The notes below the pieces were generated by a model. It saw nothing but the letters and a program-made list of their open reading frames with translations, was not told where the DNA came from and did not search any database. DNA of 57,230 bases from a virus. Lineage: Duplodnaviria > Caudoviricetes. The position numbers and the translations under genes were made by a program. Location of the stretch: the IMG/VR virus record IMGVR_UViG_3300025120_012119, positions 1 to 57,230 of that record; one strand, 5' to 3'. Every line of letters starts with the position of its first letter. Position 1 is the first letter of the stretch. Below are positions 8,501 through 52,506 of the stretch, one piece after another.

Positions 8501-10207
8501 GGATCTTCAGGAGCAGATGGAACTACAGGTTCAAGTGGTGATTCTGGAGGATCAGGTCAAAGTGCAGGATCAGGTACTTCAGGTTCAACAGGAACAACAG
8601 GTTCAAACGGTAACACAGGTGGTACAGGTTCTTCAGCACAAAGTGGTCAATCAGGAACATCAGGTTCAAATGGTTCAAATGGTAATACAGGTAATACTGG
8701 TAATTCAGGACAAAGTGGCCAATCAGGTACTTCAGGATCAAATGGTTCAAGTGGTAACACAGGAGCAGCAGGTGCAAGTAGAGCATCTAATACATCAGGA
8801 TCTTCAGGTTCAGCAGGATCTTCAGGTATAACAGGTGCAACTGGTGCTAGTGCCTCTTCAAATACTTCAGGATCTAGTGGTACAAATGGATCAACAGGTG
8901 CTACAGGTGGAGCAGGTGCAAGTAAATCATCAAATACTTCAGGTTCATCAGGTACAAATGGTTCAAATGGTAATACAGGAGGAGCAGGTGCAAGTAGATT
9001 ATCAGGAACAAGTGGATCTTCAGGATCTAATGGTTCAAGTGGTGACACAGGTAATAATGGTGCTTCAGCACAAAGTGGCCAATCAGGTACTTCAGGTTCA
9101 AATGGTTCAAATGGTAATACAGGAGGAGCAGGTGCAAGTAGACTATCAGGTACTTCAGGTTCATCAGGTTCAACAGGATCTAGTGGTAATACAGGTGGAG
9201 CAGGAGCAAGTAAATTATCAGGAACAAGTGGATCTTCAGGTTCAAATGGTGTAGCAGGTGCTTCAGGATTAAGTGGAACAGCAGGTTCAGCAGGATCTTC
9301 AGGAGCAGACGGTACAACAGGTTCTTCAGGTAATGGTGGTGGATCAGGTCAAAGTGCAGGATCAGGAACAAGTGGATCTTCAGGTTCAACAGGATCTAAT
9401 GGTAATACAGGAGGAGCAGGTGCAAGTAGACTATCAGGTACTTCAGGTTCAACAGGATCTTCAGGTTCAACAGGTGCTACAGGTGGATCAGGAGCAAGTA
9501 AAGGATCAGGTACTTCAGGATCAAGTGGTTCAACTGGTAATAATGGAGCAGTTGGTGGATCAGGTGCAAGTGCTGTATCAGGTACTTCAGGATCAAATGG
9601 TTCAGCAGGTAATGGAGGTTCACCAGGTGGATCAGGTGGATCAGGTACTTCAGGTACTTCAGGAACAGCTGGATCTTCAGGTGTAATAGGTGGTTCAGGA
9701 TCTTCAATTACAATAACAACTACAGCTCCTTTAAGAATAGCAGGTGCCGCAAGTGCTACATTAGACCAAAGTAGAACTTTATCACTTGATTTAGGTGCAG
9801 GAAATTTAGTATATCCAGAAAGAAATACAGATGGTTTTAGTGGTGATGAAGTTACTTTTGGATCACAATTAGCTAATAATACTACATATCTCATATATTG
9901 TTTAGGACAAGATGGTATATGGAGAACAGCAGATAAAGATTCTTCTAACCAAGCAACAGGAACATTAGCAATTGCTATGGGTGCTAGTGCTTCTACTAAT
10001 GGTATGTTTGTTAGAGGTATAGTATTTGCCGAAGAAAATTTTGGAGAATTAGGTACAGGTGATACTTTATATGTAGGTGATAACGGTATCCCAACAGCAA
10101 CAGCTCCAACATCAGCTGGTGATTATGTAAGAATAATAGGACAAGTAACTGATGTAGCAGGTCAAATTTGGTTTGATCCAGATAAAACATATGTATTAAA
10201 TTCATAA
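2579..10207 (+). CDS. Giant (2542 aa) Gly-X-Y Ser/Thr-rich repeat fibre-like virion protein with globular N- and C-terminal domains
   Basis: About 270-aa non-repetitive N-terminus, about 2100-aa tripeptide repeat, about 165-aa C-terminus (LYVGDNG..TAPTSAGDYVRIIG..IWFDPD, resembling capsid-fibre/cement-type tip domains). Confidence 0.75.
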   Translation: MALDKTKKSNRLLASRRYTMEQSSDAQEAFTSVLDINASEVYIDQAAIPTTGLPYSGSTQNGEYVLSGSANLLRYYYQEQLTPSNVVNGSKTEVFFLISASGHNPATAVTPQIIQAGQQGSFISPKYSDPSLTNADTEDLTPGYNVTIRVNGTKQNPSNYQFDYKTGVIQFVDADVAPTTGDTVKCSVYQYVGRTLSDSAGGSGQGFPFSGSAQITGSVGGVAGGFAVTGSSTFDISGTGDDFKIESAPIQDFPFVLTYATGSGKIGYVEVSSGTSGVAGSNGSAGVSGTSGSSGSSGATGTNGSSGLAGVSGLSGTNGSSGSSGDDGTTGSSGESGTSGSSGTSGSSGTTGSAGSSGADGTSGSSGLAGVSGLSGTNGSSGSSGDDGTTGSSGESKTSGSAGTSGSSGESGTVGSSGLSATSGSQGSSGVAGASGLAGTAGSSGSSGADGTTGSSGESKTSGSSGTNGSSGGNGTNGSSGLAGASGLSGTNGSSGSSGDDGTTGSSGESKTSGSAGSSGSSGGSGTVGSSGLSATSGSQGSSGVAGASGLAATAGSSGSSGADGTTGSAGLSGQANTSGSAGTSGSNGSSGNDGTSGSSGLAGVSGLSGTNGSSGSSGDDGTTGSSGESATSGSTGSSGLSGGSGTVGSSGASATSGSTGSSGVAGASGLAATAGSSGSSGADGTTGSSGESGGSGTSGSAGTSGSNGSSGDNGTSGSSGLAGVSGLSGTNGSSGSSGDDGTTGSSGESKTSGSSGTNGSSGGSGTVGSSGASATAGSSGSNGSSGNAGEAGASATSGSSGTSGSVGSSGDSGGSGTAGSSGASATSGSQGSSGVSAASGLSGTAGSSGSSGADGTTGSSGDSATSGSTGSSGASGGSGTVGSSGSSQTSGSSGSNGSSGNTGAAGQSASSNTSGSSGTNGSSGDSGGSGTSGSSGLSGQSGTNGSAGSSGVSGVAGNSGTAGSSGSSGADGTTGSSGESATSGSTGSSGLSKASGTAGSSGLSKASGTAGSSGSSGSSGNTGAAGQSASSNTSGSSGTNGSSGDSGGSGTSGSSGQSGQSGTNGSAGSSGVAGASGNSGTAGSSGSSGADGTTGSSGDSATSGSTGSSGASGGSGTVGSSGESKTSGSSGSNGSSGNTGAAGQSASSNTSGSSGTNGSSGDSGGSGTSGSSGLSGQSGTNGSAGSSGVAGASGLSGTAGSSGSSGRDGTTGSSGASATSGSTGSSGASGGSGTVGSSGESKTSGSSGSNGSSGNTGNAGQSASSNTSGSSGTNGSSGDSGGSGTSGSSGLSGGSGTNGSAGSSGVDGASGLSGTAGSSGQSGADGTTGSSGESATSGSTGSSGASGGSGTVGSSGSSQTSGSSGSNGSSGNTGNAGQSASSNTSGSSGTNGSSGDSGGSGTSGSSGQSGGSGTNGSNGSSGVAGASGLSGTAGSSGQSGADGTTGSSGESATSGSTGSSGLSKASGTTGSSGSSQTSGSSGSNGSSGNTGNAGQSAGSATSGSSGTNGSSGDSGGSGTSGSSGLSGGSGTNGSNGSSGVAGASGLSGTAGSSGSSGADGTTGSSGNAGGSGQSAGSGTSGSSGSNGSNGNTGAAGASKSSATSGSSGSNGSTGNAGAAGQSASSNTSGSSGTNGSSGDSGGSGTSGSSGQSGGSGTNGSNGSSGVAGASGLSGTAGSAGSSGADGTTGSSGNSGGSGQSAGSGTSGSSGSNGSNGNTGGAGASRASGTSGSTGSSGSTGATGGAGASKSSNTSGSSGTNGSNGNAGAAGASAVSGESGTSGSNGSNGAAGATGAGGQSGQSGTNGSNGSNGVAGASGLSGTAGSAGSSGGDGTTGSSGNSGGSGQSAGSGTSGSSGSNGSNGNTGGSGASRASGTSGSTGTSGSTGATGGAGASRSSNTSGSSGTNGSNGVAGNAGASAVSGESGTSGSNGSNGAAGATGASGQSGQSGTNGSNGSNGNAGASGLSGTAGSAGSSGADGTTGSSGDSGGSGQSAGSGTSGSTGTTGSNGNTGGTGSSAQSGQSGTSGSNGSNGNTGNTGNSGQSGQSGTSGSNGSSGNTGAAGASRASNTSGSSGSAGSSGITGATGASASSNTSGSSGTNGSTGATGGAGASKSSNTSGSSGTNGSNGNTGGAGASRLSGTSGSSGSNGSSGDTGNNGASAQSGQSGTSGSNGSNGNTGGAGASRLSGTSGSSGSTGSSGNTGGAGASKLSGTSGSSGSNGVAGASGLSGTAGSAGSSGADGTTGSSGNGGGSGQSAGSGTSGSSGSTGSNGNTGGAGASRLSGTSGSTGSSGSTGATGGSGASKGSGTSGSSGSTGNNGAVGGSGASAVSGTSGSNGSAGNGGSPGGSGGSGTSGTSGTAGSSGVIGGSGSSITITTTAPLRIAGAASATLDQSRTLSLDLGAGNLVYPERNTDGFSGDEVTFGSQLANNTTYLIYCLGQDGIWRTADKDSSNQATGTLAIAMGASASTNGMFVRGIVFAEENFGELGTGDTLYVGDNGIPTATAPTSAGDYVRIIGQVTDVAGQIWFDPDKTYVLNS
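3398..9706 (+). repeat. Coding 9-bp-periodic repeat (GGN-TCN-TCN type) with higher-order units of about 170-440 bp
   Basis: 6309 nt = 701 x 9. The anchor G(A/D)DGTTGS recurs at 3551, 3731, 3920, 4073, 4262, 4433, 4622, 4793, 5135, 5486, 5846, 6197, 6548, 6899, 7250, 7628, 8069, 8510 and 9302, and all spacings are multiples of 9. Confidence 0.95.
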
Positions 10208-39103: not shown

Positions 39104-40090
39104 ATGGCAAAAACTTCCCTTTTAAAAGAACGTATAGTATATAAACCTTTTGAATATCAAGAGGCATCTGATTATTGGTTACAACAACAACAAGCACATT
39201 GGCTTCACACAGAAGTACCTATGATGTCTGATGTTAATGATTGGAAGCAAAATTTATCAGAAACAGAAAAAAATATTATTGGGACTATCTTAAAGGGATT
39301 TGCTCAAACAGAAACAGTAGTAAATGATTACTGGTCAACACTAGTTACAAAATGGTTTAGAAAACCAGAAGTAATTAAAATGGCTGTAACATTTGGGGCA
39401 TTTGAAACTATTCATGCTGAAGCATATTCTTTATTAAATGAAGAATTAGGTTTAGATGATTTTAGTGAATTTTTAGAAGATGAAGCTACAATGGCTAAAA
39501 TTGAAGCTTTAACATCTGTAAGAGATTCACATGATGGAACTCCTAATTGGCATGAAAGAGCTAAATCATTAGCTATATTTTCTGCTTTTACAGAAGGTGT
39601 TAATTTATTTTCTTCTTTTGCTGTTTTATTATCATTTAAATTAGATAATAAACTTAAAGGTGTAGGTCAAATAGTAGAATGGAGTATTAGAGATGAATCA
39701 TTACATTCAGATGCGGGTTGTTGGTTATTTAGAACATTAATGCAAGAACATCCAGAATTTAATACCCCTGAATTACAAGCTGATATTGAAGAAGCAGCAC
39801 AATTATCTTTAAAATTAGAATTAGATTTTATTGATAAGGTATATGAAATGGGTGATTTAAAAGGATGTCCTAAATATGATTTAGTATCCTTTATTAAACA
39901 TAGAGTAAATACTAAAATGAGTGATTTAGGATATGGACCTATTGTTAATGGAATAGATAAAGATGCAGTACAAAGAATGAAATGGTTTGATAGTTTATCA
40001 GCTGGAAAACAACATACAGATTTCTTTGCAAATAGAGTTACTAATTATTCAAAAGGTGTTCAAGATTGGGACGCTAACGCAATATTTTAA
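39104..40090 (+). CDS. nrdB: Class Ia ribonucleotide reductase beta subunit
   Basis: YKPFEY, ETIHAEAY, FTEGVNLFSSF, RDESLH, DFFANRVTNY. Confidence 0.95.
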   Translation: MAKTSLLKERIVYKPFEYQEASDYWLQQQQAHWLHTEVPMMSDVNDWKQNLSETEKNIIGTILKGFAQTETVVNDYWSTLVTKWFRKPEVIKMAVTFGAFETIHAEAYSLLNEELGLDDFSEFLEDEATMAKIEALTSVRDSHDGTPNWHERAKSLAIFSAFTEGVNLFSSFAVLLSFKLDNKLKGVGQIVEWSIRDESLHSDAGCWLFRTLMQEHPEFNTPELQADIEEAAQLSLKLELDFIDKVYEMGDLKGCPKYDLVSFIKHRVNTKMSDLGYGPIVNGIDKDAVQRMKWFDSLSAGKQHTDFFANRVTNYSKGVQDWDANAIF

Positions 40091-40093
40091 GAT

Positions 40094-41809
40094 ATGGAAA
40101 ATAACGCATTACAAGTAGATTATAGTAGTTGGGAAGCTGGAAAGCAATACCCAGAATGGATGGATGAAATTTCATTAGCAACTATTTCAAAAGGTTATTT
40201 ACTACCCGGAGAAACAGTAAGAACAGCGTATAAAAGAGTATCAAATGCTGCTGCTACAAGACTTAAAAAACCAGAATTATCAAATAAATTTTTTAAAATA
40301 ATGTGGAATGGTTGGTTAGGTTTAGCTTCACCTGTTTTATCAAATATGGGAACTGATCGTGGTTTACCTATTTCATGTTTTGGTGTTGATACACCTGATT
40401 CAATACGTGGTATTGGGTTAACTAATGCAGAATTAATGAAACTAACAGCTTCTGGTGGGGGTGTAGGTATTTCATTAAATCGTATTAGACAACGTGGTAC
40501 TGAAATAGCAGGAAATGGTAAATCTGAAGGTGTAGTACCTTGGGCAAAAATATATGATTCATCAATTATTGCTACCAATCAAGGTAATGTTAGAAGAGGC
40601 GCAGCATCAGTTAATTTAGATATTGAACATGGAGACATAGATGAATTTTTACAAATTAGAAGACCTAAAGGAGATCCTAATAGACAGTGTTTAAATTTAC
40701 ACCAATGTGTTGTTGTAGGTGATTCATTTATGAGAAAATTAGAAGCTAGAGATCCTGAATCAATGCAAAGGTGGGCTACTGTCTTAAAATCTAGAATGGA
40801 AACAGGAGAACCTTATATAATGTATAAGGATAATGTTAATAAAGATAACCCAATTGCTTATAGATTAAATAATTTAGAAGTAAGTATGACTAATATTTGT
40901 TCTGAAATTACATTGTTTACAGATGAAGAACATTCATTTATTTGTTGTTTATCTTCTATGAATTTAGCTAAATATGATGAGTGGAAAGACACAGATACTG
41001 TAGAATTAGCTACTTGGTTTTTAGATGGTGTAATGCAAGAATTTATAGATAAATCTAATGGTAAAGATTCGTTAAGAAGAACCCACCATCATGCTAAAAA
41101 AGGTAGAGCATTAGGTTTAGGGGTAATGGGTTGGCATTCATTTTTACAACAAAAAGGATTACCTTTTAATTCAATAGCATCTACAGCTCATACTCATAAT
41201 ATATTTTCAGATATTAGAGGAAAAGCAGAAAAAGCTTCAATGGCATTAGCTCAAGAATATGGAGAGCCATTATGGTGTAAAGGAACTGGTATGAGAAATA
41301 CTCATTTATTAGCAGTTGCTCCCACAGTATCTAATTCAGTTATTTGTGGTGGTATTTCAGCTGGTATTGAACCTTTACCTGCTAACATTTATACATTTAA
41401 TGGTGCTAAAGGTACTTTTATTAGAAAAAATAAAGTATTAGAAGGCATTTTAATAGAAAAAGGTGAAAATAAAGATAAGTGGTGGGATCAAATGTTAGCT
41501 GAAGATGGCTCAGTACAAAACCTTCCAGATAATGTATTATCTCCTGATGAAAAAGAATTATTTTTAACATTCCCAGAAACAAACCAACTAGAATTAGTTA
41601 GACAAGCTGCTATAAGACAAAAATATATTGATCAAACTCAATCTTTAAATTTATCATTTGATCCTAGTGATTCACCTAAATGGATTAATCAGGTACATTT
41701 AGAAGGATGGAAATTAGGAATAAAAACATTTTACTATCTAAGAACAGATTCAGTAATTAAAGGAGACTTAGGATCCAGAATGGCTGAATGTGTGTCCTGT
41801 GATGGTTAA
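40094..41809 (+). CDS. nrdA: Class Ia ribonucleotide reductase alpha subunit (short, no ATP cone)
   Basis: SPVLSN, PISCF, GGGVG, TNICSEI, CCLSS, APTVSNS, DQTQSLN, KTFYYLR, C-terminal CVSCDG. Confidence 0.95.
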   Translation: MENNALQVDYSSWEAGKQYPEWMDEISLATISKGYLLPGETVRTAYKRVSNAAATRLKKPELSNKFFKIMWNGWLGLASPVLSNMGTDRGLPISCFGVDTPDSIRGIGLTNAELMKLTASGGGVGISLNRIRQRGTEIAGNGKSEGVVPWAKIYDSSIIATNQGNVRRGAASVNLDIEHGDIDEFLQIRRPKGDPNRQCLNLHQCVVVGDSFMRKLEARDPESMQRWATVLKSRMETGEPYIMYKDNVNKDNPIAYRLNNLEVSMTNICSEITLFTDEEHSFICCLSSMNLAKYDEWKDTDTVELATWFLDGVMQEFIDKSNGKDSLRRTHHHAKKGRALGLGVMGWHSFLQQKGLPFNSIASTAHTHNIFSDIRGKAEKASMALAQEYGEPLWCKGTGMRNTHLLAVAPTVSNSVICGGISAGIEPLPANIYTFNGAKGTFIRKNKVLEGILIEKGENKDKWWDQMLAEDGSVQNLPDNVLSPDEKELFLTFPETNQLELVRQAAIRQKYIDQTQSLNLSFDPSDSPKWINQVHLEGWKLGIKTFYYLRTDSVIKGDLGSRMAECVSCDG

Positions 41810-41863: not shown

Positions 41864-42397
41864 ATGAAAAACAAAATTTTCTTATTATTTTTATCATCAT
41901 TCTTAATTATAGGGTGTGGTAATAACAAAAATGTAGACCCAGCTTTAGCAGGAACAATAACAGATCCTCCTACAGTTACAACATCCCCAGCAAAATTTAC
42001 TTTAACAGTAATAAATAAAACTGATCAGGATATGAAATGGGAACAAAGTTGGGCTATGACAGGACCTGATTCTGGAGTAGTAAAAGCAGGTGAAACAGTT
42101 GAATTATCATCTAATGAAGTTGACTCAGATCACATTAATGTTTATCCTATTGCACCAAAAAGTGTAGATCAACCAAACCCGGGTAATGGTACTTTTGGTA
42201 TGCAATATGGTTATGATGGGCATATAGCACGTGTATACTGTGATAATGTATGTAATAAAGGATATCCAACGGCTGATGTACATTATGAAGGTACAAATTG
42301 GATATACGCAACTGAATGGCTAAAAGACCCAGCAGTACAAACTAATACAACTAACACAGTAACAATTACAACTCAAGTTTGGCCTATAACTAAGTAA
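41864..42397 (+). CDS. Putative lipoprotein
   Basis: Signal peptide and lipobox MKNKIFLLFLSSFLIIG-C. Confidence 0.7.
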   Translation: MKNKIFLLFLSSFLIIGCGNNKNVDPALAGTITDPPTVTTSPAKFTLTVINKTDQDMKWEQSWAMTGPDSGVVKAGETVELSSNEVDSDHINVYPIAPKSVDQPNPGNGTFGMQYGYDGHIARVYCDNVCNKGYPTADVHYEGTNWIYATEWLKDPAVQTNTTNTVTITTQVWPITK

Positions 42398-42443: not shown

Positions 42444-42701
42444 ATGGCAACAAAAACAAGAAAACCAAAAGTTAAAAAAGTAAAAGAAGAAATTGCTGAA
42501 AAACTAACTCTTGCTAAAAAATTTTATAACTTAGCAAAAGCATGGATTGAAGGTAATGGAATTGAAGGATTTTTAGGATTAATTATAGGATTAATATTAT
42601 GGTCCTTTGGATATAAAGTTTATGCTGGATTCGCTTTTGGTGTATTTGCTACACGAAACTGGGATTTATTTAAGAACTGGATAAAAAGTTTTATAAAGTA
42701 A
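42444..42701 (+). CDS. Small membrane protein
   Basis: Basic N-terminus followed by hydrophobic FLGLIIGLILWSFG..YAGFAFGVFA. Confidence 0.7.
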   Translation: MATKTRKPKVKKVKEEIAEKLTLAKKFYNLAKAWIEGNGIEGFLGLIIGLILWSFGYKVYAGFAFGVFATRNWDLFKNWIKSFIK

Positions 42702-42725
42702 TTAATTATCAATATTTTTTAGTAG

Positions 42726-42752
42726 AAGGGGTGCACTTTGTGTACCCCTTTT
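42726..42752 (+). terminator. Intrinsic terminator
   Basis: AAGGGGTGCAC-TTT-GTGTACCCCTT followed by TT. Confidence 0.75.
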
Positions 42753-42761
42753 ATATTTATA
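42753..42761 (+). promoter_or_regulatory. Putative late promoter ATATTTATA
   Basis: Directly after the terminator, heading the 42809-48877 operon. Confidence 0.5.
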
Positions 42762-42808
42762 CCCAAATTATATTTAATTAAAAGTTTTAACCAATTAGTT
42801 TATAAATT

Positions 42809-43063
42809 ATGAACAAAATACAATTAAAAATTATGGCTTTTAAAGATATATTTAAAGACGACAACGACATTAATGAAAAAAGTGTAATTGGATTTTTATC
42901 ATTTTTAATAATGATAATATTTGCAGTTACAGATCTAATAACAGGTTACTTAGGGAAAGAATTATTACTAAATGAGTACATATATGATTCTTTCACCCTT
43001 ATAACTTTAGGATGTTTTGGAATAGCAGGATTAGAAAAAATATTCGGAAAAAAAGAAAATTAA
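42809..43063 (+). CDS. Two-TM membrane protein, holin candidate (start may be 42833)
   Basis: Two hydrophobic helices and a basic C-terminus (KIFGKKEN); in the same operon as the endolysin. Confidence 0.55.
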   Translation: MNKIQLKIMAFKDIFKDDNDINEKSVIGFLSFLIMIIFAVTDLITGYLGKELLLNEYIYDSFTLITLGCFGIAGLEKIFGKKEN

Positions 43064-43064
43064 T

Positions 43065-46000
43065 ATGAAAAAAGTATTATTGCTGTTATTGTGTATGATA
43101 CCATTCTTTGGTTTTTCACAATCAAATGACAGTTGGTTTAATTTAAAGGTTCAGTTTGATTATTATGGTCCATCTGAATCTTTTGCTTTAATAACACAAC
43201 AAGGAGATACATTAGTAAATTATCAACCTACAATCCCTTTTGAATTTTATCAAACATTAGTATATGCTGATTCAGGTGATATAGATATATCATTATTTGA
43301 TTCATTTGGTGATGGTTGGACTGGGGGTACCATAAATACTAATAGTGGTATAATAGCTAACATTTTAATGGAAAATACTTGTCAGGGAGTAATTTTAGAT
43401 TTAGATGCTAATTTTCCATTTACTCAATATGATACAACAGTAAATTTATTACCATGCCCACCACCAATTGCTGGGTGTATGGATTCAAATTCAGTAAACT
43501 ATAATCCTAATGCTACTGTAGATGACAGCAGTTGTTTATATAACGTAGATTTTAGTTTAAATATGAATCAATATAATGGTTCGTTTACAACACCTTATGT
43601 AGTAGGCCCATTTAATAATTGGACAGATGCAAACCCAATGGTAGATACAAATGGTAATGGTATTTGGGAAACTACAATAGCTCTTCCACCTGGGTTTACA
43701 GTTTGGAAGTTTATGTTAGATAATTTTGCGGATCAAGAATTACCATCTAATGTACAAAATGACCCACTAGCAAGTTGTTTTGTATTAGATCAATACGGGT
43801 TTACAAATAGAACTTTAGATGTAACAGCACAACCTATAACATTACCTACATATTGTTGGGAAAGTTGTTATGATTGTGGTGCTATTTTTGGATGTACAGA
43901 TCCAACATCAAACTTATATAATCCTTGGGCAACTTTAGATGATGGTTCGTGTACAGTAAGTGGACCAACTGGGTGTGATCCAGACCAAACATATATAGAA
44001 TTAGTATTTACTCCTGATAACTGGCCAAACGAAACAAGTATAATAGTTTACGATGATAGTGGAGCAGTATTTACAGCATCACAAGGAACATATATTGGAC
44101 AACCTGCTGGTATCCCAATCTCAGAATTTATTTGTGTTGATTCAAATGTATTAGTAGATTTTGTAATTGAAGACACATATGGAGATGGTTTAGGAGGTTC
44201 AACATCAGGAGGTTCTGTAGATGGAAATTTAGAAATATTTGATTGTGATGGAGTTGAATTATTTGATCTAGTAGATTCAGTAGGAGCTAATTTTGGGTAT
44301 CAATATACTTCTCCACAATTTAATACAGGTGATATTTGTTCATATAATGGGGGAACGGATGTATACGGTTGTATGAATCCATTCTCAACAACATATGATT
44401 CATTAGCAACAATAGATGATGGAAGTTGTGGCCCAGCAAGAGTAGTAGGTTGTACAGATCCAACTGCTTTTAATTACGATCCGAATGCTAATCAAACAGA
44501 AACAATGCAAGGTAATTATACCTTAGAAATATTTGATGGAGCTGCAAACGGATGGAGTGGAACTTGGTTAGGTATTAAACAAGGTAATTGGTTATCACCA
44601 CAATATAAAATAGGACCAAATAATGGTACTTCACTTACTTTTAATGTTCCATTAAATATTTTTGAACCAATTAAACTTTACTTATTTACAACTCAACAAT
44701 CAGCACAAACAATAAATCAGGTAGGATACACTCTAACAGGTCCGACTGGTGATACAATTGTAGATGTACCATATTTTACAGCAGGGCCATTACAATTTCC
44801 AATATGCCAATCACCAACAGCACAACCATTTTATGGTGATGTGTGTGTTCCTGTAATTTTAGGATGTATGGATTCAACTTCGTTTAATTATATTCAACCA
44901 ACAGGAGATCCTTTAGTTGATGTAAATACAGATGATGGTTCATGTGAACCTATAGTAGTTGGTTGTATGAATCCATTAGCATTTAACTATGATTCAACTG
45001 CTAATGTAGATGATCCTTCTTTATGTATACCTGTAGTAGTAGGTTGTATGGATTCAACATCATTTAACTATGATCCAAATGCAAACACTCCTGGTAGTTG
45101 TATTCCTGTATTATTAGGTTGTACAGATCCAACTTCATTTAATTATGATCCTAATGCAAATACTAATGATAATTCATGTGTTCCAATAATTACAGGTTGT
45201 ACAGATCCAACTTCATTTAACTATGATTCATTAGCAAATACAGATGATGGAAGTTGTATTGCAACTATATTAGGATGTACAGATCCTACTCAATTTAATT
45301 ATAATCCAGCTGCCAACACTGATGATGGGTCTTGTGTAGCAATAGTCTATGGATGTACAGATCCAACACAATTTAATTATGATCCTTTAGCTAATACTAA
45401 TAATGGTTCTTGTATTCCTATTATTTATGGTTGTATGGATTCTACTCAATTAAATTATAACCCATTAGCTAATACTGATAATGGAACTTGTATTCCATTT
45501 GTATATGGTTGTACAGATCCACAATCTATAAATTATGACCCCTTAGCAAATACAGATGATGGTAGTTGTATTCCGATATTATATGGTTGTACTGATTCTA
45601 CATCATTTAACTACAACCCCTTAGCAAATACAGATGATGGTAGTTGTATTCCTATAGTTTATGGTTGTACAGATCCTTCAGCTTTTAATTATGATCCAAA
45701 TGCAAACACAGAAGACTTTAGTTGCATACCAGTAGTTTATGGGTGTACAGATTCTACTGCTGTAAATTATGATTCAACTGCAAATGTAGATAATGGTTCT
45801 TGTATAACAGCAATTCCAGGATGCACTGATCCAAATGCATATAATTACGATCCAAACGCTAATGTTTCAGATTCAACAGCTTGTTTATATGATGCTGGTT
45901 GTATTGATGGACCAGGTAACCCATATTGGCTAAATGATCAATGTTATGCTTGGGTAATTGATGTAGATAATTACTGTTGTAATAATGAATGGGATCCTAC

Positions 46001-46298
46001 GTGTCAAGAAATGTATAATTATTGTGAAGATGGTTGGCCAGAAGGAATTGATATTTGGGAAAACCAAAGAATGTTCAATAGTATAGTTATTTTCCCTAAC
46101 CCAACAAAAAACACTTTAAATGTTAAAACTGGAGGTTTAGAAGAAGTAAAATATACTTTATATGATTTTACAGGTAAATTACTAAATGAAGGTATAGGTG
46201 ATGGAATAATTGATTTATCACAATATTCAAATGGTGTTTATTTTTTAAACATAGATTATAATGGAAACACATATAATAAAAAAATAATTAAAAACTAA
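43065..46298 (+). CDS. Secreted Cys-rich repeat protein with a C-terminal T9SS (Por) type-A sorting domain
   Basis: Sec signal MKKVLLLLLCMIPFFGFSQ; 17 GC(T/M)D..NY.P.AN.DDGSC repeats; CBM48/early-set-like segment (YVVGPFNNW..MVDTNGNGIWETTIAL); CTD IFPNPTKNTLNV..GVYFLNI..NKKIIKN. Confidence 0.85.
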   Translation: MKKVLLLLLCMIPFFGFSQSNDSWFNLKVQFDYYGPSESFALITQQGDTLVNYQPTIPFEFYQTLVYADSGDIDISLFDSFGDGWTGGTINTNSGIIANILMENTCQGVILDLDANFPFTQYDTTVNLLPCPPPIAGCMDSNSVNYNPNATVDDSSCLYNVDFSLNMNQYNGSFTTPYVVGPFNNWTDANPMVDTNGNGIWETTIALPPGFTVWKFMLDNFADQELPSNVQNDPLASCFVLDQYGFTNRTLDVTAQPITLPTYCWESCYDCGAIFGCTDPTSNLYNPWATLDDGSCTVSGPTGCDPDQTYIELVFTPDNWPNETSIIVYDDSGAVFTASQGTYIGQPAGIPISEFICVDSNVLVDFVIEDTYGDGLGGSTSGGSVDGNLEIFDCDGVELFDLVDSVGANFGYQYTSPQFNTGDICSYNGGTDVYGCMNPFSTTYDSLATIDDGSCGPARVVGCTDPTAFNYDPNANQTETMQGNYTLEIFDGAANGWSGTWLGIKQGNWLSPQYKIGPNNGTSLTFNVPLNIFEPIKLYLFTTQQSAQTINQVGYTLTGPTGDTIVDVPYFTAGPLQFPICQSPTAQPFYGDVCVPVILGCMDSTSFNYIQPTGDPLVDVNTDDGSCEPIVVGCMNPLAFNYDSTANVDDPSLCIPVVVGCMDSTSFNYDPNANTPGSCIPVLLGCTDPTSFNYDPNANTNDNSCVPIITGCTDPTSFNYDSLANTDDGSCIATILGCTDPTQFNYNPAANTDDGSCVAIVYGCTDPTQFNYDPLANTNNGSCIPIIYGCMDSTQLNYNPLANTDNGTCIPFVYGCTDPQSINYDPLANTDDGSCIPILYGCTDSTSFNYNPLANTDDGSCIPIVYGCTDPSAFNYDPNANTEDFSCIPVVYGCTDSTAVNYDSTANVDNGSCITAIPGCTDPNAYNYDPNANVSDSTACLYDAGCIDGPGNPYWLNDQCYAWVIDVDNYCCNNEWDPTCQEMYNYCEDGWPEGIDIWENQRMFNSIVIFPNPTKNTLNVKTGGLEEVKYTLYDFTGKLLNEGIGDGIIDLSQYSNGVYFLNIDYNGNTYNKKIIKN
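44856..45884 (+). repeat. 13 tandem coding repeats of about 78 bp (26 aa), GCTDPxxFNYDPxANTDDGSC
   Basis: Directly visible in the translation and in the DNA (ggttgtacagatcca... recurring). Confidence 0.9.
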
Positions 46299-46299
46299 T

Positions 46300-47355
46300 A
46301 TGAAAAAAATATTATTAATATTACTAATAATTCCTTTTACAGTTTTAAGCCAAGACGACTTCCCAGCTAAAGTAAAAAAAGCATTTAAATTTTCAACATT
46401 TTATGGTGCTATTAATGGTGGAAACTCTATATCTGATGTAGATGTATTTTCAGTTACTAATGGTTTACAAACCTCTACTATTAAAACCCCATTTGATTAC
46501 TCAATAGCATTAGGAGTTAGAAAAATAGCTAGATTTGGGTATGAAAATAGAGAAAATGTTTTTTATGATGGTACTGAAAAATCATACTCAGATGCTGCCA
46601 CAATTGGAAAAATATCAGGTTTTGAGTTTTTATTTGAAACCGTATGGAGTAGACAACAGGGAAGATCTTATTTAAATCAAGATTATTTTATGAGATATGT
46701 AGCTGATAAATGGATAGCAAAAATAGAATTTTTAGAAGATGGTTTTGCTGATATTAGATTTTTTGAAGTATCTCAAAGGTATAGATATAAATTAAATAAT
46801 AAATTATCATTTAATGTAGGAGCAGTTCAAAGGTTATCTGAACCTTATGGTTATGATCCTTTAGAAGAATGGTTGTTATCAAATGGTAATTTACATTACA
46901 CATTTTTAGCAATACAAGAAGGATATTCTGTAAATTTTAATGATCCTAATAATATACAATATTTAAACCCTAATGGTGATATAGTAGCTAGTAGCACTGA
47001 TGTTTGGGAACAAGTAGTAATTCCTCAAGTCCTATCAGATTATACAGAAAAGAAAAAAAATGAAATTGCATCACAATTTGAATATTCTTTTGTAGCTGGT
47101 TTTGATTATTACCATTATACTAAAGATTTTTGGTTACATTCTTGGGGAAATATTATGCCTTATCACATTGATACAAAAAACCGATATAGTTATCACAAAT
47201 ATAATAACGGTCAATGGTTTGATTGGAGTGGTGGATTAATATTTGGGTATAAATTTAATAGGCATTTAGGTTTGTTTTTAGAAGGAAAATATAATAAATA
47301 TTGGAACAGACAATGGCATGACTTTAGTGTAGGTGTAAATTATATAATATTTTAA
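46300..47355 (+). CDS. Putative outer-membrane beta-barrel protein
   Basis: Signal peptide, aromatic-rich alternating strands, BamA-type C-terminus FSVGVNYIIF. Confidence 0.65.
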   Translation: MKKILLILLIIPFTVLSQDDFPAKVKKAFKFSTFYGAINGGNSISDVDVFSVTNGLQTSTIKTPFDYSIALGVRKIARFGYENRENVFYDGTEKSYSDAATIGKISGFEFLFETVWSRQQGRSYLNQDYFMRYVADKWIAKIEFLEDGFADIRFFEVSQRYRYKLNNKLSFNVGAVQRLSEPYGYDPLEEWLLSNGNLHYTFLAIQEGYSVNFNDPNNIQYLNPNGDIVASSTDVWEQVVIPQVLSDYTEKKKNEIASQFEYSFVAGFDYYHYTKDFWLHSWGNIMPYHIDTKNRYSYHKYNNGQWFDWSGGLIFGYKFNRHLGLFLEGKYNKYWNRQWHDFSVGVNYIIF

Positions 47356-47359
47356 AAAA

Positions 47360-47644
47360 ATGGCAAAAGAGTTAAATGAAGATACAAGTGTAAAAGTAAG
47401 TGTAAAAACTTTAGGAGGTATCGCAGTTTTAATATTTACCCTTGTAGGTATGTGGTTTACACTACAAGCAGAAATTCAAGAAGCAAAAGAACTTCCAAAC
47501 CCGTTACCACCAGATGTAACTAGAATGGAATATGATATGAAAGATCAATTAATCCGTCAAACTATTATGTCAACTCAAGAAGATGTTAACGAGTTAAAAG
47601 AACGCATGATAAGAATGGAAGAGAAGATCGATAAATTAAGATAA
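47360..47644 (+). CDS. Single-TM coiled-coil protein
   Basis: TM segment LGGIAVLIFTLVGMWFTL followed by a heptad C-terminus. Confidence 0.65.
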   Translation: MAKELNEDTSVKVSVKTLGGIAVLIFTLVGMWFTLQAEIQEAKELPNPLPPDVTRMEYDMKDQLIRQTIMSTQEDVNELKERMIRMEEKIDKLR

Positions 47645-47649
47645 TTATT

Positions 47650-47982
47650 ATGAAAAAACTGTTAATAATATTACTGTTAACTGTAGCATGTACTTTTTCA
47701 GCACAATCACAAATAATAGTAACTCATTTTAATGCAGAATGGAATTCCCCTAATAAAGCAGAATGGGTAGGAAAATTAACAGATTGTGAAATTACATATG
47801 TAGATATTGCTAAAAACCCAAAACTTCAACAAAAACATAAAGTAGTGGTTGTACCTACAATTATTATATTTAAAGATGGTGAAGAAATAAAAAGATATCA
47901 AGCAGATATTTCTTTTAAAATGTTAGCAACTAAAAACGAACTCCAAGAAGAAATTGATGAAATTATAATGAGTTCATTCTAA
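47650..47982 (+). CDS. Exported thioredoxin-fold protein lacking CxxC
   Basis: Signal peptide, HFNAEWN in place of F.A.WCxxC, VVPTIIIFKDGEEIKR. Confidence 0.75.
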   Translation: MKKLLIILLLTVACTFSAQSQIIVTHFNAEWNSPNKAEWVGKLTDCEITYVDIAKNPKLQQKHKVVVVPTIIIFKDGEEIKRYQADISFKMLATKNELQEEIDEIIMSSF

Positions 47983-47992
47983 AATAAAAAAA

Positions 47993-48877
47993 ATGGTATT
48001 AAAAATAGGATCAAAAGGAAGTATAGTTAAAGATTTACAAGAATTTCTAGAAATAGAAGCAGATGGTATATTTGGTAAGGGAACAGAACGTGCAGTAAAA
48101 GCATTTCAATCAAATATGAATTTAATAGTGGATGGTTTAGTAGGACCTAAAACTATGGATTTAATGGGGTTAGTAAGTACTGATTTAGCAGAAAAAACGT
48201 ATGTAACAGAAAATGGTTTACTTATTAATAAACATTACTTACCATTAGGAGAATATAAAGAAGGAGCTTGGAATAAAGAATATTTATTTTTACACCACAC
48301 TGCAGGTTGGCATAACCCATTTAGAACAATTGATCATTGGGGTAGAGATGATAGAGGAGCAGTTGCTACTGAATTTGTTTTAGGAGGACAATCAATAAAA
48401 GGAAATGATAATCAATATGATGGAGAGGTAGTTCAAGCATTCCCAGAAGGTGGGTTTGGATGGCATTTAGGAAAAAATGGTTCACAACACATGCATGTAC
48501 ATTCTGTAGGTATTGAAGTTAATAATTTTGGATACCTTAAAAATGGGAGAACATATGCTGGACAATTAGCTGATGATTCCCAAGTTGTTGAATTAAATGA
48601 ACCTTTTAAAGGATATAAAGAATGGCACAGATATTCTAACAAACAAATTGAAAATTTAAAAAAATTAATACTATATATAGCAGACAGAGATAATATTGAT
48701 GTTAGACAAGGGCTCCCAGCTGTAATTAAAAAGCATGGGGTTGCTAAAGGATTTGATTTTAATGAAGATGCTTATTACGGTAGAATAAAAGGATTGTGGA
48801 CTCACACAAATACAAGAAAAGATAAATTTGATATGTTCCCTCAACAAGAACTAGTTGATATGTTATTAAGTTTATAA
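47993..48877 (+). CDS. Endolysin: peptidoglycan-binding domain plus N-acetylmuramoyl-L-alanine amidase (Amidase_2-like)
   Basis: LKIGSKG..LQ..ADGIFGKGTERAVKAFQ..VDGLVGPKT; FLHHTAG, WHLG, SVGIEV, THTN..K.D. Confidence 0.88.
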   Translation: MVLKIGSKGSIVKDLQEFLEIEADGIFGKGTERAVKAFQSNMNLIVDGLVGPKTMDLMGLVSTDLAEKTYVTENGLLINKHYLPLGEYKEGAWNKEYLFLHHTAGWHNPFRTIDHWGRDDRGAVATEFVLGGQSIKGNDNQYDGEVVQAFPEGGFGWHLGKNGSQHMHVHSVGIEVNNFGYLKNGRTYAGQLADDSQVVELNEPFKGYKEWHRYSNKQIENLKKLILYIADRDNIDVRQGLPAVIKKHGVAKGFDFNEDAYYGRIKGLWTHTNTRKDKFDMFPQQELVDMLLSL

Positions 48878-48931: not shown

Positions 48932-50158
48932 ATGTTAAACAATCTAAAAAAATACTTATTTCCTCTTTTAATAGCATTTTCCGCTTTATCAGTTAGTGCA
49001 TCAGCAGCATTTTATTCAGTTAGTGGTTTAAGTAAATTATTTGCTGGAGCTGCTTTTGCTGTTATTGTAATGGCTGCTTCGTTAGAAATAGCTAAATTAG
49101 TTATTGCATCTCTTCTATATCAATATAGAAAAAACTTACCAAGATTATTAAAATGGTATTTATCTTTAGCTTGTGTAGTACTTATATTAATTACAAGTAT
49201 GGGTATTTATGGATTTCTATCAGCAGCTTATCAAGAAACAGCTGCAAAAGCCGGGAGTATTGATGCTCAAATTTCACTTATTGAGACTAAAAGAGATAAT
49301 ATTAAAGAACAATTAGTTGTATACAATGAAGAAAAATCATCTATTAATGAGTCTGTGACTAGTTTGAGAAATGGTTTATCTACGAATAAAATACAGTATA
49401 AAGACACATTAGGTAATATAATTACAACACAATCATCTTCAACACGTAGGGTTTTAACCCAACAATTAGATCAAGCTATTGAAAGGCAAACTGTAATTAA
49501 TGAAAAATTAGATGTTTTAAATCAACAATTATTTGAATATGAAGAAGAAATAGTTGAAGTACAATTAAGTGATGCTGTGTCTAGTGAATTAGGTCCTTTA
49601 AAATATCTATCGGGTTTAACTGGATTCCCTATGGATAGGATAATAAACTGGTTATTATTAACTATTATATTTGTATTTGACCCATTAGCAATTGCTTTAG
49701 TAGTAGCTGCTAATTTTGCTTTTGAACAAATAAGACCAAAAACTAAAAAAAACCTTTATAGAGAAGATGTTTTAATTGAAGAAGAAGATGAACTAACTGA
49801 TGTTTGGGATCATGAAAATGAAGAAAAATGGGTTGATGATGGTTATATGACTAATAGTGAAGAAGATAAAAGTGCTAGTCTTGAAGAACAGGCTAAACAC
49901 ACAGATTGGGAAGAGGCTGAAAAAAGGATGGAAATTATAGGTCAAAATGGTAATGATGGAGAACATTATGAAGAATTACCAGTAGTAGATAATTCTATTA
50001 ATAATTTAACAATTTTAGAATTAGAAAAATTACTAGCAGAAACTAGTAAACCAAATAAATATGGTCCTAAAGGTTGGACAACTATAAAAAAAAGGATTAA
50101 TGAATTAAAATCATTAAATGAAAAAAACGATGATGATGATTTAATCATTAAATATTAA
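48932..50158 (+). CDS. Multi-pass membrane protein with a periplasmic coiled coil and acidic tail
   Basis: Three N-terminal TM helices, a long coiled coil, a fourth TM (WLLLTIIFVFDPLAIALVVAA). Confidence 0.7.
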   Translation: MLNNLKKYLFPLLIAFSALSVSASAAFYSVSGLSKLFAGAAFAVIVMAASLEIAKLVIASLLYQYRKNLPRLLKWYLSLACVVLILITSMGIYGFLSAAYQETAAKAGSIDAQISLIETKRDNIKEQLVVYNEEKSSINESVTSLRNGLSTNKIQYKDTLGNIITTQSSSTRRVLTQQLDQAIERQTVINEKLDVLNQQLFEYEEEIVEVQLSDAVSSELGPLKYLSGLTGFPMDRIINWLLLTIIFVFDPLAIALVVAANFAFEQIRPKTKKNLYREDVLIEEEDELTDVWDHENEEKWVDDGYMTNSEEDKSASLEEQAKHTDWEEAEKRMEIIGQNGNDGEHYEELPVVDNSINNLTILELEKLLAETSKPNKYGPKGWTTIKKRINELKSLNEKNDDDDLIIKY

Positions 50159-51657: not shown

Positions 51658-52506
51658 ATGGAACAATTAGAAATTAATTTTAAAGACGCACAACGTCCAA
51701 AACACGCAGTAGTATCACTTTCAGGTGGTATGGATTCAAGTACATTATTACTTAGATGTCTTAATGAATTTGAAACAGTAACAGCTTTATCATTTGATTA
51801 TGGTCAAAAACATAAAGTTGAACTAAAAAGAGCAAGAGCATTAGTAGATTATTTAAAAAGAAATGGTCATAATGTTGCTTATCAAACAATTAAATTAGAT
51901 GGTTTAGTAGAATTACTAGACTCAGCATTAGTTGAAGGTGGAGATGAAGTACCAGAAGGACATTATGCAGCTGAAAATATGAAAGCTACAGTAGTACCTA
52001 ATAGAAATAAAATATTTGCTTCAATTACTCAAGCGGTTGCTTTATCAGTAGCAAATAGAACTGAAGAACAAACATCAATTGCTTTAGGAATTCACAGTGG
52101 TGATCATGATATTTATCCTGATTGCAGACAAGAATTTAGGGATGCAGATGATAAAGCATTTAGAGAAGGTAATTGGGATGCTGAAAGAGTAGGATATTAT
52201 ACTCCATATCTTGAAGGTGATAAATTTACTATTTTACAAGATGGAGAAATATTATGTGAAAAATTAGGAATTGATTTTGATGAAGTTTATGCTAGGACAA
52301 ATACTTCATACAAACCAACACCAGAGGGGTGGAGTGATTATAAATCAGCTTCTTCAGTAGAAAGAATTGAAGCATTTATTAAACTTGGAAGACCTGATCC
52401 TGTACAATATGCAGATGAAACGGGTGCAGTTGATTATGAAACAGCTAGGATTTATGTAGAACAAGTTCTTGCTGAATATGAAAAAGAACAATTAAACAAT
52501 AAATAA
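51658..52506 (+). CDS. queC: 7-cyano-7-deazaguanine synthase QueC (Zn-Cys motif degenerate)
   Basis: SLSGGMDS, FDYGQKHKVEL, TVVPNRN, YPDCRQEF. Confidence 0.92.
   Translation: MEQLEINFKDAQRPKHAVVSLSGGMDSSTLLLRCLNEFETVTALSFDYGQKHKVELKRARALVDYLKRNGHNVAYQTIKLDGLVELLDSALVEGGDEVPEGHYAAENMKATVVPNRNKIFASITQAVALSVANRTEEQTSIALGIHSGDHDIYPDCRQEFRDADDKAFREGNWDAERVGYYTPYLEGDKFTILQDGEILCEKLGIDFDEVYARTNTSYKPTPEGWSDYKSASSVERIEAFIKLGRPDPVQYADETGAVDYETARIYVEQVLAEYEKEQLNNK

Follow-up and report, generated by a model that had tools for sequence, protein, structure and literature searches.

Phage-borne genes for three predicted envelope proteins and a candidate type IX secretion cargo recur near lysis genes

A run of six genes was analyzed in the IMG/VR virus record IMGVR_UViG_3300025120_012119, a linear sequence of 57,230 bases that is referred to at its full length as the window. 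The record has an estimated completeness of 35%, and all of its long open reading frames (ORFs) were located on the plus strand. Four genes of the run form the subject of this work and are called the block. The first of them encodes a protein with a type IX secretion system (T9SS) sorting domain, named here the cargo. The other three, named the trio, encode an outer-membrane beta-barrel (the barrel), a short protein with one transmembrane (TM) helix (the TM protein) and a protein with the thioredoxin fold (Trx). The block was situated between a holin-like gene and an endolysin gene, in one tight run behind a terminator-like hairpin. The features were as follows.

42722-42754, plus strand: intrinsic-terminator-like hairpin followed by a U run (-22.6 kcal/mol, z -6.4; 0 of 200 shuffles folded as well)
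42809-43063, plus strand: small membrane protein of 84 amino acids, holin-like by context only
43065-46298, plus strand: T9SS type-A cargo of 1077 amino acids, sorting domain above the curated cut-offs
46300-47355, plus strand: outer-membrane beta-barrel of 351 amino acids, from a phage-only family (AlphaFold2 model and signal peptide)
47360-47644, plus strand: bitopic inner-membrane protein of 94 amino acids, topology read by eye
47650-47982, plus strand: exported thioredoxin-fold protein of 110 amino acids lacking the CxxC loop (PF00085, 29.3 bits, cut-off 23.5)
47993-48877, plus strand: endolysin of 294 amino acids with PG_binding_1 and Amidase_2 domains (PF01510, 38.9 bits, cut-off 26; PF01471, 48 bits, cut-off 23)

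The six ORFs were found exactly where a preliminary description of this DNA, made from its letters only, had placed them, and were separated by gaps of 1, 1, 4, 5 and 10 nt. The same description had put the run behind a late-type motif. The hairpin was found there instead, followed by 54 AT-rich bases before the first gene, and no enriched word was detected. A 14-nt word taken from the upstream AT-rich stretch matched the window 47 times versus 36.3 ± 5.9 in shuffled sequences, 3 of 100 shuffles reaching 47, and a scan of the window for sigma-70-type promoters remained at the level of chance (66 found versus 68.1 ± 7.7). The hairpin probably ends the upstream unit, so that the six genes would start a new transcript. 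The endolysin that had been reported next to the block was confirmed, since both its catalytic and its wall-binding domain exceeded the cut-offs, and it also matched several endolysin PHROGs. The holin label of the 84-residue protein was not retained as a family assignment, because no Pfam, NCBIfam or PHROG holin matched it and the name comes from the context. A homologue of this gene in the Flavobacterium phage immuto was located directly 5' of genes annotated as 'putative chitinase' and 'holin'.

The C-terminus of the cargo (residues 1009-1077) was recognized as a type-A T9SS C-terminal domain (CTD) by both curated models, PF18962 Por_Secre_tail with 43.6 bits (cut-off 27) and TIGR04183 with 44.4 bits (cut-off 23). 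The Sec signal that had been proposed for the protein was also present as MKK, a hydrophobic run and FSQ, as read from the sequence, and was conserved in the homologues. By these domains, the cargo is validly addressed to the host T9SS, through which its export is predicted. The signal peptide was followed by a beta-sandwich head (residues 19-133), a weak module resembling CBM48, a family of carbohydrate-binding modules (CBMs), at about 160-270, two further heads of ~130 residues each (about 297-435 and 470-600), the repeats, a Cys-rich segment (940-1008) and the CTD. The third head contained a weak copy of the GDGW-type motif of the first one.

The cargo contained 52 Cys residues. The 17 two-Cys Asp-rich repeats counted in the preliminary description were about right: a strict pattern gave 13 units and three more were closed by eye (277-296, 436-455 and 601-627), resulting in 16 closed Asp/Asn-rich repeats and one copy, at 463, that was open. 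At the DNA level, 9.2 copies of a 78-nt unit were detected by TRF at 45092-45805. The tripeptide D-(S/T)-(A/I/L/V/M/T), a glycosylation-type motif said to recur in the repeats, was indeed enriched (14 occurrences versus 5.5 ± 2.2 over 2000 shuffles, 2 of which reached 14). However, nine of the 14 were located within the repeat array, so the copies are not independent and most of them stem from the repeats themselves. The similarity to CBMs was likewise present but stayed below the curated cut-offs, with 23.5 bits for AMPK1_CBM versus 26.8 and 17.5 bits for CBM_48 versus 22.4. Among the Atlas neighbours of this part only a minority of members had CBM_48, and the part itself was modelled at a predicted local distance difference test (pLDDT) value of <50.

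A Foldseek search with the first head returned nothing at E <= 0.001, its highest-ranked rows (E 3e-3 to 1e-2) being lipase and lipoxygenase domains of the PLAT/C2-like kind, and the best VIA match (Z 6.3), to a Ca-dependent CBM, was within the range of chance arrangements. The head was modelled as a generic beta sandwich, and no function was drawn from these fold matches. Neither the Pfam and NCBIfam scans of the cargo nor the fold searches with the head domain indicated a catalytic domain. The cargo may be a binding-type, adhesin-like surface protein. Homologues often matched only in the last third of the cargo, and many were alike only in the stalk of repeats, the Cys-rich segment and the CTD and differed in their heads. 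The family defined by repeats plus CTD comprised 7505 relatives on contigs reaching 302 kb; PF18962 was found on 116 of the 120 relatives listed, and some had MAM domains.

The protein encoded next was modelled by AlphaFold2 as a barrel of ~14 strands (pLDDT 75.7, predicted TM-score 0.69) with a helical insert at residues 187-255. Its signal peptide and C-terminal Phe, both noted in the preliminary description, were borne out in the window, where the protein ends in ...NYIIF, but the Phe ending was not a feature of the family. Over 62 related loci (designated by L numbers), 28 barrels ended in F, 20 in L, 3 in Y and 11 in another residue; the ending G-x-N-Y-x-I-[FL] closed with F, L or Y in 51 of them. 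The best structural matches of the model had a Z of 11.0 (EstA and Omp33), with a root-mean-square deviation of 4.0-5.1 over 170-183 aligned residues. The model appears to resemble outer-membrane barrels in general and no specific one.

The barrel had no Pfam, NCBIfam or PHROG family, and Pfam on 26 relatives gave chance-level matches alone. A metagenome protein collection held 3643 relatives, all unnamed and located, among the matches listed, on contigs of up to 130 kb. An exhaustive search gave 339 cluster representatives, none with a family name, and the nearest Atlas clusters were viral. In IMG/VR, 52 loci had barrels with 57-73% identity. A set of one genome per species (185,579 prokaryotic species) was scanned with patterns from the single protein, which gave nothing, and with an alignment of close relatives, which gave 10 contigs. 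All of these belonged to metagenome-assembled genomes (MAGs) with labels as diverse as Parvibaculum, Nitrosopelagicus, Rickettsiales, Pelagibacter, Woesearchaeota and Flavobacteriales, and all had phage-like neighbours; they were read as phage contigs binned by mistake. With tblastn, a collection of cultured phages yielded neither the barrel nor the TM protein and only weak matches for Trx.

The best conserved stretch of the barrel was located at residues 77-104 (46528-46611 in the window), which were predicted to be disordered (pLDDT about 35). Residues R74, K75, R78, Y81, F88, G91 and E93 were invariant in 25 sequences. Residues 77-104 may be a segment that binds a partner or plugs the barrel. 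It was also observed that the signal peptide of the barrel in L018, L021, L024, L047 and L054 ended in a lipobox-like ...AS-C followed by PKKCC, and the barrels of those lineages may be lipidated.

In the TM protein, a conserved N-terminus of 17 residues preceded a single TM helix, which a Pro-rich linker connected to a conserved helix of ~45 residues. The charged pattern of this conserved helix was coiled-coil-like when inspected by eye, and 12 columns were invariant in 25 sequences. At least 7996 relatives were found on contigs of up to 171 kb, some exact sequences occurring on >200 contigs, and the identity across the IMG/VR loci was 53-79%. No match was found in the PDB, and the PHROG matches were weak and led only to families of unknown function.

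The profile of Trx aligned with thioredoxins of the PDB at E 2e-10, with their WCGPC stretch facing a gap of five residues. CxxC was absent in all 25 aligned relatives. A protein that has lost this loop in all of the aligned relatives cannot be an oxidoreductase or a disulfide catalyst, and the proposal that it serves as a folding helper was abandoned as far as a redox role is concerned. The cis-Pro P69 and the C-terminal F110 were both invariant (25/25). Before the final Phe there was an acidic or Ser-rich tail. This ending is reminiscent of the aromatic C-terminal residue that marks outer-membrane proteins and might be used for docking on the barrel or an envelope sensor. Redox-inactive thioredoxin-fold proteins are used elsewhere as structural partners. 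The protein described here is like them in the fold, the retained cis-Pro and the absent CxxC, and differs in being exported, phage-specific, provided with an invariant C-terminal Phe and always encoded beside the TM protein and the barrel. A complex prediction with the barrel (residues 19-351), Trx (21-110) and the TM protein (38-94) as partner, made from 25-row alignments, scored 0.00; it was run with no controls and was weighed neither way.

The signal peptides of the block were mostly followed by Gln. A Gln after the cleavage site is described in part of the literature as the Q-rule of Bacteroidetes (PMC5837995), and a passage on proteins of Porphyromonas phages has noted it there as well (PMC10367356). 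The Q-rule signal peptides together with the CTD fit a Bacteroidota host, as judged from the sequence.

A barrel paired with a bitopic inner-membrane protein could also be a phage-made uptake channel with an auxiliary metabolic function, a small specific porin (perhaps with energization or tethering through a TonB/TolA-like protein) feeding the cell nucleosides or sugars and the cargo concentrating the substrate as a binder of surface glycans. The matches of the barrel fold included the small specific channels KdgM (Z 10.1), Tsx (Z 9.9), CymA (Z 9.8) and NanC (Z 9.7), the order of TM helix, Pro-rich linker and C-terminal domain is also that of TonB and TolA, and the cargo has its weak CBM48-like module. 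In addition, putative ribonucleotide reductase (RNR) genes were adjacent to the block in the window as well as in L007, L056 and L059. However, these fold matches are generic, autotransporter and Omp85 barrels scoring alike, no TonB, TolA or porin family was matched, and both the linkage to lysis genes described below and the dead Trx would be left unexplained. Such a channel was regarded as quite improbable.

The block was not confined to the window. The co-occurrence that the preliminary description predicted for the four genes was found in 48 of the 62 loci, all of them on phage-like contigs. The remaining loci had the TM protein and Trx without the cargo (6), the TM protein alone (2), a contig cut after the TM protein (1), the cargo alone (1) or the barrel alone (4). 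Some loci end at the barrel, and no TM protein or Trx was recognizable downstream in L016 and L017. The four genes also stayed together when their order was shifted, being arranged as barrel, TM protein, Trx and cargo in L019, L047 and L054 and as TM protein, Trx, cargo and barrel in L057.

It was asserted in the preliminary description that the block would be discredited by an origin as a chimeric host insert, and several results spoke for a phage origin. The GC content of the block (0.27-0.34) matched that of the window, and the flanks were conserved phage genes, with the putative RNR genes upstream and the genes of p263 and tm408 (a multi-TM protein) downstream being syntenic in L007-L009 and L056. 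The same block with conserved phage flanks was present in 52 IMG/VR contigs. The contigs on which the barrel and the TM protein were seen did not exceed about 171 kb, no isolate genome contained either, and 14 studies included metagenome runs, marine and viral, in which the stretch was detected. A misassembled host fragment, or a single recent acquisition that does nothing for the phage, would agree with the resemblance of the cargo stalk and CTD to a very large family on contigs up to 302 kb; against the observations above, its probability was considered close to nil. The trio was restricted to phage contigs.

A distant clade (L058-L063) had barrels of about 30% identity. The TM protein adjoined the barrel in four of these six loci, two of which also had Trx, and neither was seen in L058 and L062. 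No protein with a CTD was found in the visible flanks of this clade, ten further neighbours (in L058, L060, L062 and L063) had no sorting domain, and a local model of the cargo CTD matched cargo genes alone. In L059, the order was a giant protein, an ORF of 96 amino acids, a Peptidase_M15_3 endolysin, the barrel, the TM protein and Trx, with no cargo. The barrel had been described as a dedicated partner of the cargo, and this claim was weakened, as the barrel and the TM protein, in some cases with Trx, occurred with no CTD protein in view. Conservation was uneven across the block, with the barrel and the TM protein reaching about the level of core genes. The barrel, the TM protein and Trx are thus the older and better conserved core, to which the cargo was added in one clade. 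The cargo type was also common on longer marine contigs, so the cargo is probably host-derived; since the architecture of stalk plus CTD is widespread beyond these phages, it has the appearance of a surface protein of host type that joined an already existing phage trio. Near the barrels of the distant clade, genes were also seen for an Hsp90-family protein (E 1e-49, L063:1495-3402) and a kinase-like protein of the Zeta-toxin/AAA_33 type (L058:6831-7529).

A second family of T9SS cargo (184-535 amino acids) was observed next to the block in nine loci, located just 3' of the Trx gene on the opposite strand in L035, L037, L038, L041-L043, L045 and L049 and found also in L048. The L038 member (535 amino acids), which was the one scanned, carried a CHU_C type-B sorting domain (PF13585, E 1.7e-15). 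Downstream of Trx, one lineage (L028-L040, L050 and L053) encoded runs of small proteins of very basic character, with a high content of Lys, Arg, Gly, Met and Pro and, in some of them, GGxM repeats.

The preliminary description had regarded the whole block as a phage-encoded module for display on the cell surface. According to this explanation, the T9SS exports a stalked adhesin, the barrel holds or anchors it, and the TM protein and Trx assist, so that the surface of the infected cell is remodelled for superinfection exclusion, for the masking of receptors on cells and debris, or for adhesion. The arrangement recalls SprB and SprF of Flavobacterium johnsoniae, where the gene of a cargo with a type-B CTD is adjoined by that of a cognate PorP/SprF-like barrel. 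In both cases a cargo gene lies directly beside a gene for a signal-peptide-bearing outer-membrane barrel of 300-350 amino acids. The cases differ in that the CTD here is of type A, the barrel shows no relation to TIGR03519 and the barrel also occurs with no cargo.

The secretion-centred explanation draws on the CTD above its cut-offs, on the overlap with the barrel start in 35 of 50 cargo genes (by 4 nt), by which the two genes would usually be coupled in translation, on the cargo staying with the trio despite the changes of order in four loci, and on the CHU_C protein beside the block. The combination of varying heads and a conserved stalk gives the impression of diversifying pressure on the cargo. 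Phage resistance in Flavobacterium has been mapped to gliding and T9SS genes, according to parts of the literature on it, which makes T9SS-dependent surface proteins plausible receptors to mask. On the other hand, the trio was found without a CTD cargo in the distant clade, and the stalk and CTD were shared by many proteins on far longer contigs (up to 302 kb), whereas the barrel was found on phage-like contigs alone. Moreover, Trx has no redox site, and the barrel showed no sequence or profile relation to PorP/SprF. It matched no PorP/SprF (TIGR03519) or PorV family, no PorP/SprF match was found in 26 relatives either, and hhalign of its profile with five PorP/SprF proteins from four MAGs gave a probability of 3.8% with only the signal peptides aligned. 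Foldseek placed chain 8gl6_F of a T9SS complex, which we take to be PorV, at E 1.1e-3 and a TM-score of 0.31 amid many unrelated barrels, and the chain was not among the top 50 for the barrel by VIA-align. Of the display module as it had been described, the CTD, the co-occurrence and the phage origin were upheld, and the dedicated barrel partner and the folding helper were not. A role of the block in display was kept as a tentative and somewhat unlikely explanation.

The neighbourhood pointed to another function. Four genes on each side of the block were clustered in the 62 loci, and the larger clusters were named with Pfam and PHROGs. A holin- or endolysin-type gene was found within four genes of the block in 30 of the 62 loci, and these genes belonged to six unrelated families:

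84-residue (hol84-like) family, homologous to the holin-like gene of the window: 15 loci
Amidase_2 endolysin: 13 loci
phrog_3427 holin: 8 loci, directly upstream in 7 of the 8
Phage_holin_4_1: 8 loci
phrog_33083 endolysin-like protein of 200 amino acids: 6 loci
Peptidase_M15_3: 3 loci

At least six arrangements were recorded, among them holin-block-lysin, lysin-holin-block, block-holin-lysin and lysin-trio. An exchange of non-homologous lysis genes around a constant partner is a pattern typical of lysis cassettes, and the repeated linkage to unrelated families points to a role of the trio with lysis. For the display explanation, the same placement suggests late expression, which would leave little time for superinfection exclusion; a masking of debris would still fit. 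Neighbours with DUF5675 were considered as endolysins and were not counted, since they had no relative in the PDB.

We proposed that a phage-specific envelope trio works with lysis and is joined by an adhesin-like protein exported by the T9SS, a reading to which a probability of roughly 40% was given. The trio would be made in the infected cell and exported by Sec, the barrel then passing through the beta-barrel assembly machinery (BAM), to reach three layers of the envelope. The barrel would be inserted into the outer membrane, the TM protein into the inner membrane with its conserved helix facing the periplasm, and the redox-dead Trx would remain in the periplasm. After the action of the holin and the endolysin, the trio would link or destabilize the inner and outer membranes, possibly as a complex, and thus act as an analogue of spanins that is built on a barrel rather than a lipoprotein. 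The cargo would travel through Sec and then the host T9SS to the surface, where its variable beta-sandwich heads, held on a stalk of disulfide-locked repeats, would decorate the infected cell and its remains.

Two-component spanins such as Rz/Rz1 of phage lambda consist of an inner-membrane protein and a small outer-membrane lipoprotein. The trio is similar in having, as judged by eye, an N-terminal TM helix followed by a putative periplasmic helix, an outer-membrane partner and a place beside holin and endolysin genes, with mosaic lysis neighbours. It differs by the integral barrel as the partner, the short periplasmic helix, the third, Trx-like protein and the lack of a match to PF03245. This Rz-type i-spanin family was not detected above its cut-off in five related records, two of which are 96-98% complete. 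A conserved small lipoprotein was not found in the lysis region of the window either, the sole other ORF with a lipobox (41864-42397) having no relatives in the related loci. Trx was considered as a lipoprotein o-spanin and rejected, as the Cys of its signal peptide was not conserved.

Several points weigh against a role of the trio in lysis. No lysis gene was recognized within four genes of the block in 32 of the 62 loci, several of which are cut at their ends, and the loci are related, so that fewer than 30 independent events lie behind the count of 30 of 62. The part of the TM protein on the periplasmic side (~55 residues) is too short to span the periplasm alone, its conserved cytoplasmic N-terminus is not a trait of spanins, and with no lipoprotein in the trio the feature of classical o-spanins is absent. 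The coupling of the cargo and barrel genes and the CHU_C protein in nine loci would fit a secretion-centred role of the barrel too. The window holds only about 35% of the genome. Finally, the block was located behind collagen-like tail-fibre genes and before very basic small proteins in seven loci, and in five loci the barrel was at most four genes downstream of a protein of 2355-2619 amino acids, lying directly behind it in L019, L047 and L062. The members of this giant family were found in both clades at the following positions:

L019:82-7941
L047:575-7981
L059:43-7110
L060:156-7523
L062:216-7697

Near residue 520-640 the giant proteins had an HExxH motif, and a region of ~850 amino acids at their C-terminus was conserved; the family was absent from the window. 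The L059 member, which was the one scanned, had no Pfam or PHROG match.

The position near tail-fibre-like genes (seven loci) and giant proteins (five loci) would also agree with a role in the virion or in entry, in which the Cys-repeat protein is a fibre-like part of the virion and the trio a structural or ejection module encoded next to giant virion proteins. Over 5% of the query, the Cys repeat had a weak match (E 3e-4) to a 'virion structural protein' of the Synechococcus phage S-CAM3. Virions, however, are assembled in the cytoplasm, and the cleavable signal peptides on the cargo, the barrel and Trx, together with the CTD and the barrel fold, direct these proteins out of it. A virion role was therefore judged highly improbable.

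The role of the trio in lysis can also be put in a stronger form, in which the trio represents a new class of outer-membrane-breaching device, a barrel-based equivalent of spanins, with the cargo as an integral fourth part that, for example, grips or loads the outer leaflet. Such a device would account for the completion of lysis without classical spanins in an abundant group of marine flavophages. This form was held to be unlikely.

Phage-made envelope proteins are known from several systems, including Lom and Bor of lambda, Llp of T5 and Sp and Imm of T4, and the bor gene of lambda lies beside the lysis genes. Those proteins and the block have in common that exported phage proteins act on the host surface or on superinfection. 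The known examples are single small proteins of other folds, and none of them is known to involve the T9SS or a block of four genes.

The preliminary description knew of no characterization of the module. In searches of the literature on phage T9SS cargo and on spanins of Bacteroidota phages, supplementary gene tables aside, neither the trio nor its coupling to a T9SS cargo nor its recurrent place near lysis genes was found, and the search on spanins encountered no treatment of how Bacteroidota phages breach the outer membrane. The four-gene module was likewise absent from the collection of cultured phages. A phage-encoded type-A T9SS cargo is already in print and that part is not new: passages of Bellas et al. 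2020 describe 'Cryophage', a Bacteroidota phage encoding proteins with type-A T9SS sorting domains that presumably use the host system (PMC7468147). As in the present case, the cargo is of type A, and the cargo genes of Cryophage vary between phage variants according to those passages (PMC7468147). The Cryophage cargo described there consists of enzymes (an endoglucanase and a GH39 protein) and a PA14 protein encoded by separate flexible genes, whereas binding-type modules are coupled here to a conserved trio (PMC7468147). The same passages mention no companion genes for a barrel, a TM protein or Trx and no position in a lysis cassette (PMC7468147).

The further features of the window were as follows.

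2579-10207, plus strand: collagen-like tail fibre of 2542 amino acids (Pfam Collagen, 576 bits; many tail-fibre PHROGs)
39104-41809, plus strand: putative ribonucleotide reductase subunits, judged by eye from their translations and from a conservation of 77-90% across the related loci
41864-42397, plus strand: lipoprotein candidate of 177 amino acids with the lipobox IIGC, just 5' of the terminator
42444-42701, plus strand: two-TM protein of 85 amino acids, just 5' of the terminator
48932-50158, plus strand: multi-TM protein tm408 of 408 amino acids with a long coiled-coil loop, directly 3' of the endolysin
51658-52506, plus strand: QueC (PF06508, 128.9 bits)

The Gly-X-Y repeats of the tail fibre account for an island of 44-47% GC at 3-10 kb in a window of about 30% GC. 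The window also codes for a tail sheath, a DnaB-like helicase, a 5'-3' exonuclease and a RecA-like ATPase. Like the lipoprotein candidate, the 85-residue two-TM protein had no relative among the 62 related loci. The tm408 gene occupied the same place in L007-L009 and L056 and was nearby in L010, L023 and L052. Its product gave only coiled-coil noise in Pfam and NCBIfam scans and could be a further component of lysis or of the envelope. A weak PADLOC match to LmuB was situated in the long coiled-coil stretch and was likewise taken as noise; PADLOC returned nothing for the six-gene run. In the Flavobacterium phage immuto, QueF is encoded near the lysis genes, and the presence of QueC in the window and QueF in immuto suggests a deazaguanine DNA modification in this phage group.

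Related records of 156-166 kb are 96-98% complete, from which it follows that the window is a fragment of a large contractile-tailed phage. The source appears to be a contractile-tailed marine phage of Bacteroidota with a genome of ~160 kb, from a group that appears to consist of large myoviruses of marine Flavobacteriia. Contigs of RNA libraries, from four metatranscriptome runs of three studies, fell on all six genes. The junctions holin/cargo, cargo/barrel and TM/Trx were bridged by some of them, and identity with the window was observed for two pieces. These contigs are a hint of expression and no more, since a transcript cannot be proven by contigs and the libraries may contain DNA; stretches left uncovered carry no weight.

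The module is abundant and widespread in large uncultured phages of marine Bacteroidota, whose hosts, the marine Flavobacteriia, are major degraders of algal polysaccharide. The variable heads of the cargo on a constant stalk may mark the binding targets of these phages or of the infected cells in the sea. If the block serves display, it would be the first case known to us in which a phage equips a hijacked secretion system with envelope partners of its own. If the trio works with lysis, a breaching of the outer membrane based on a barrel would be a new mechanism.

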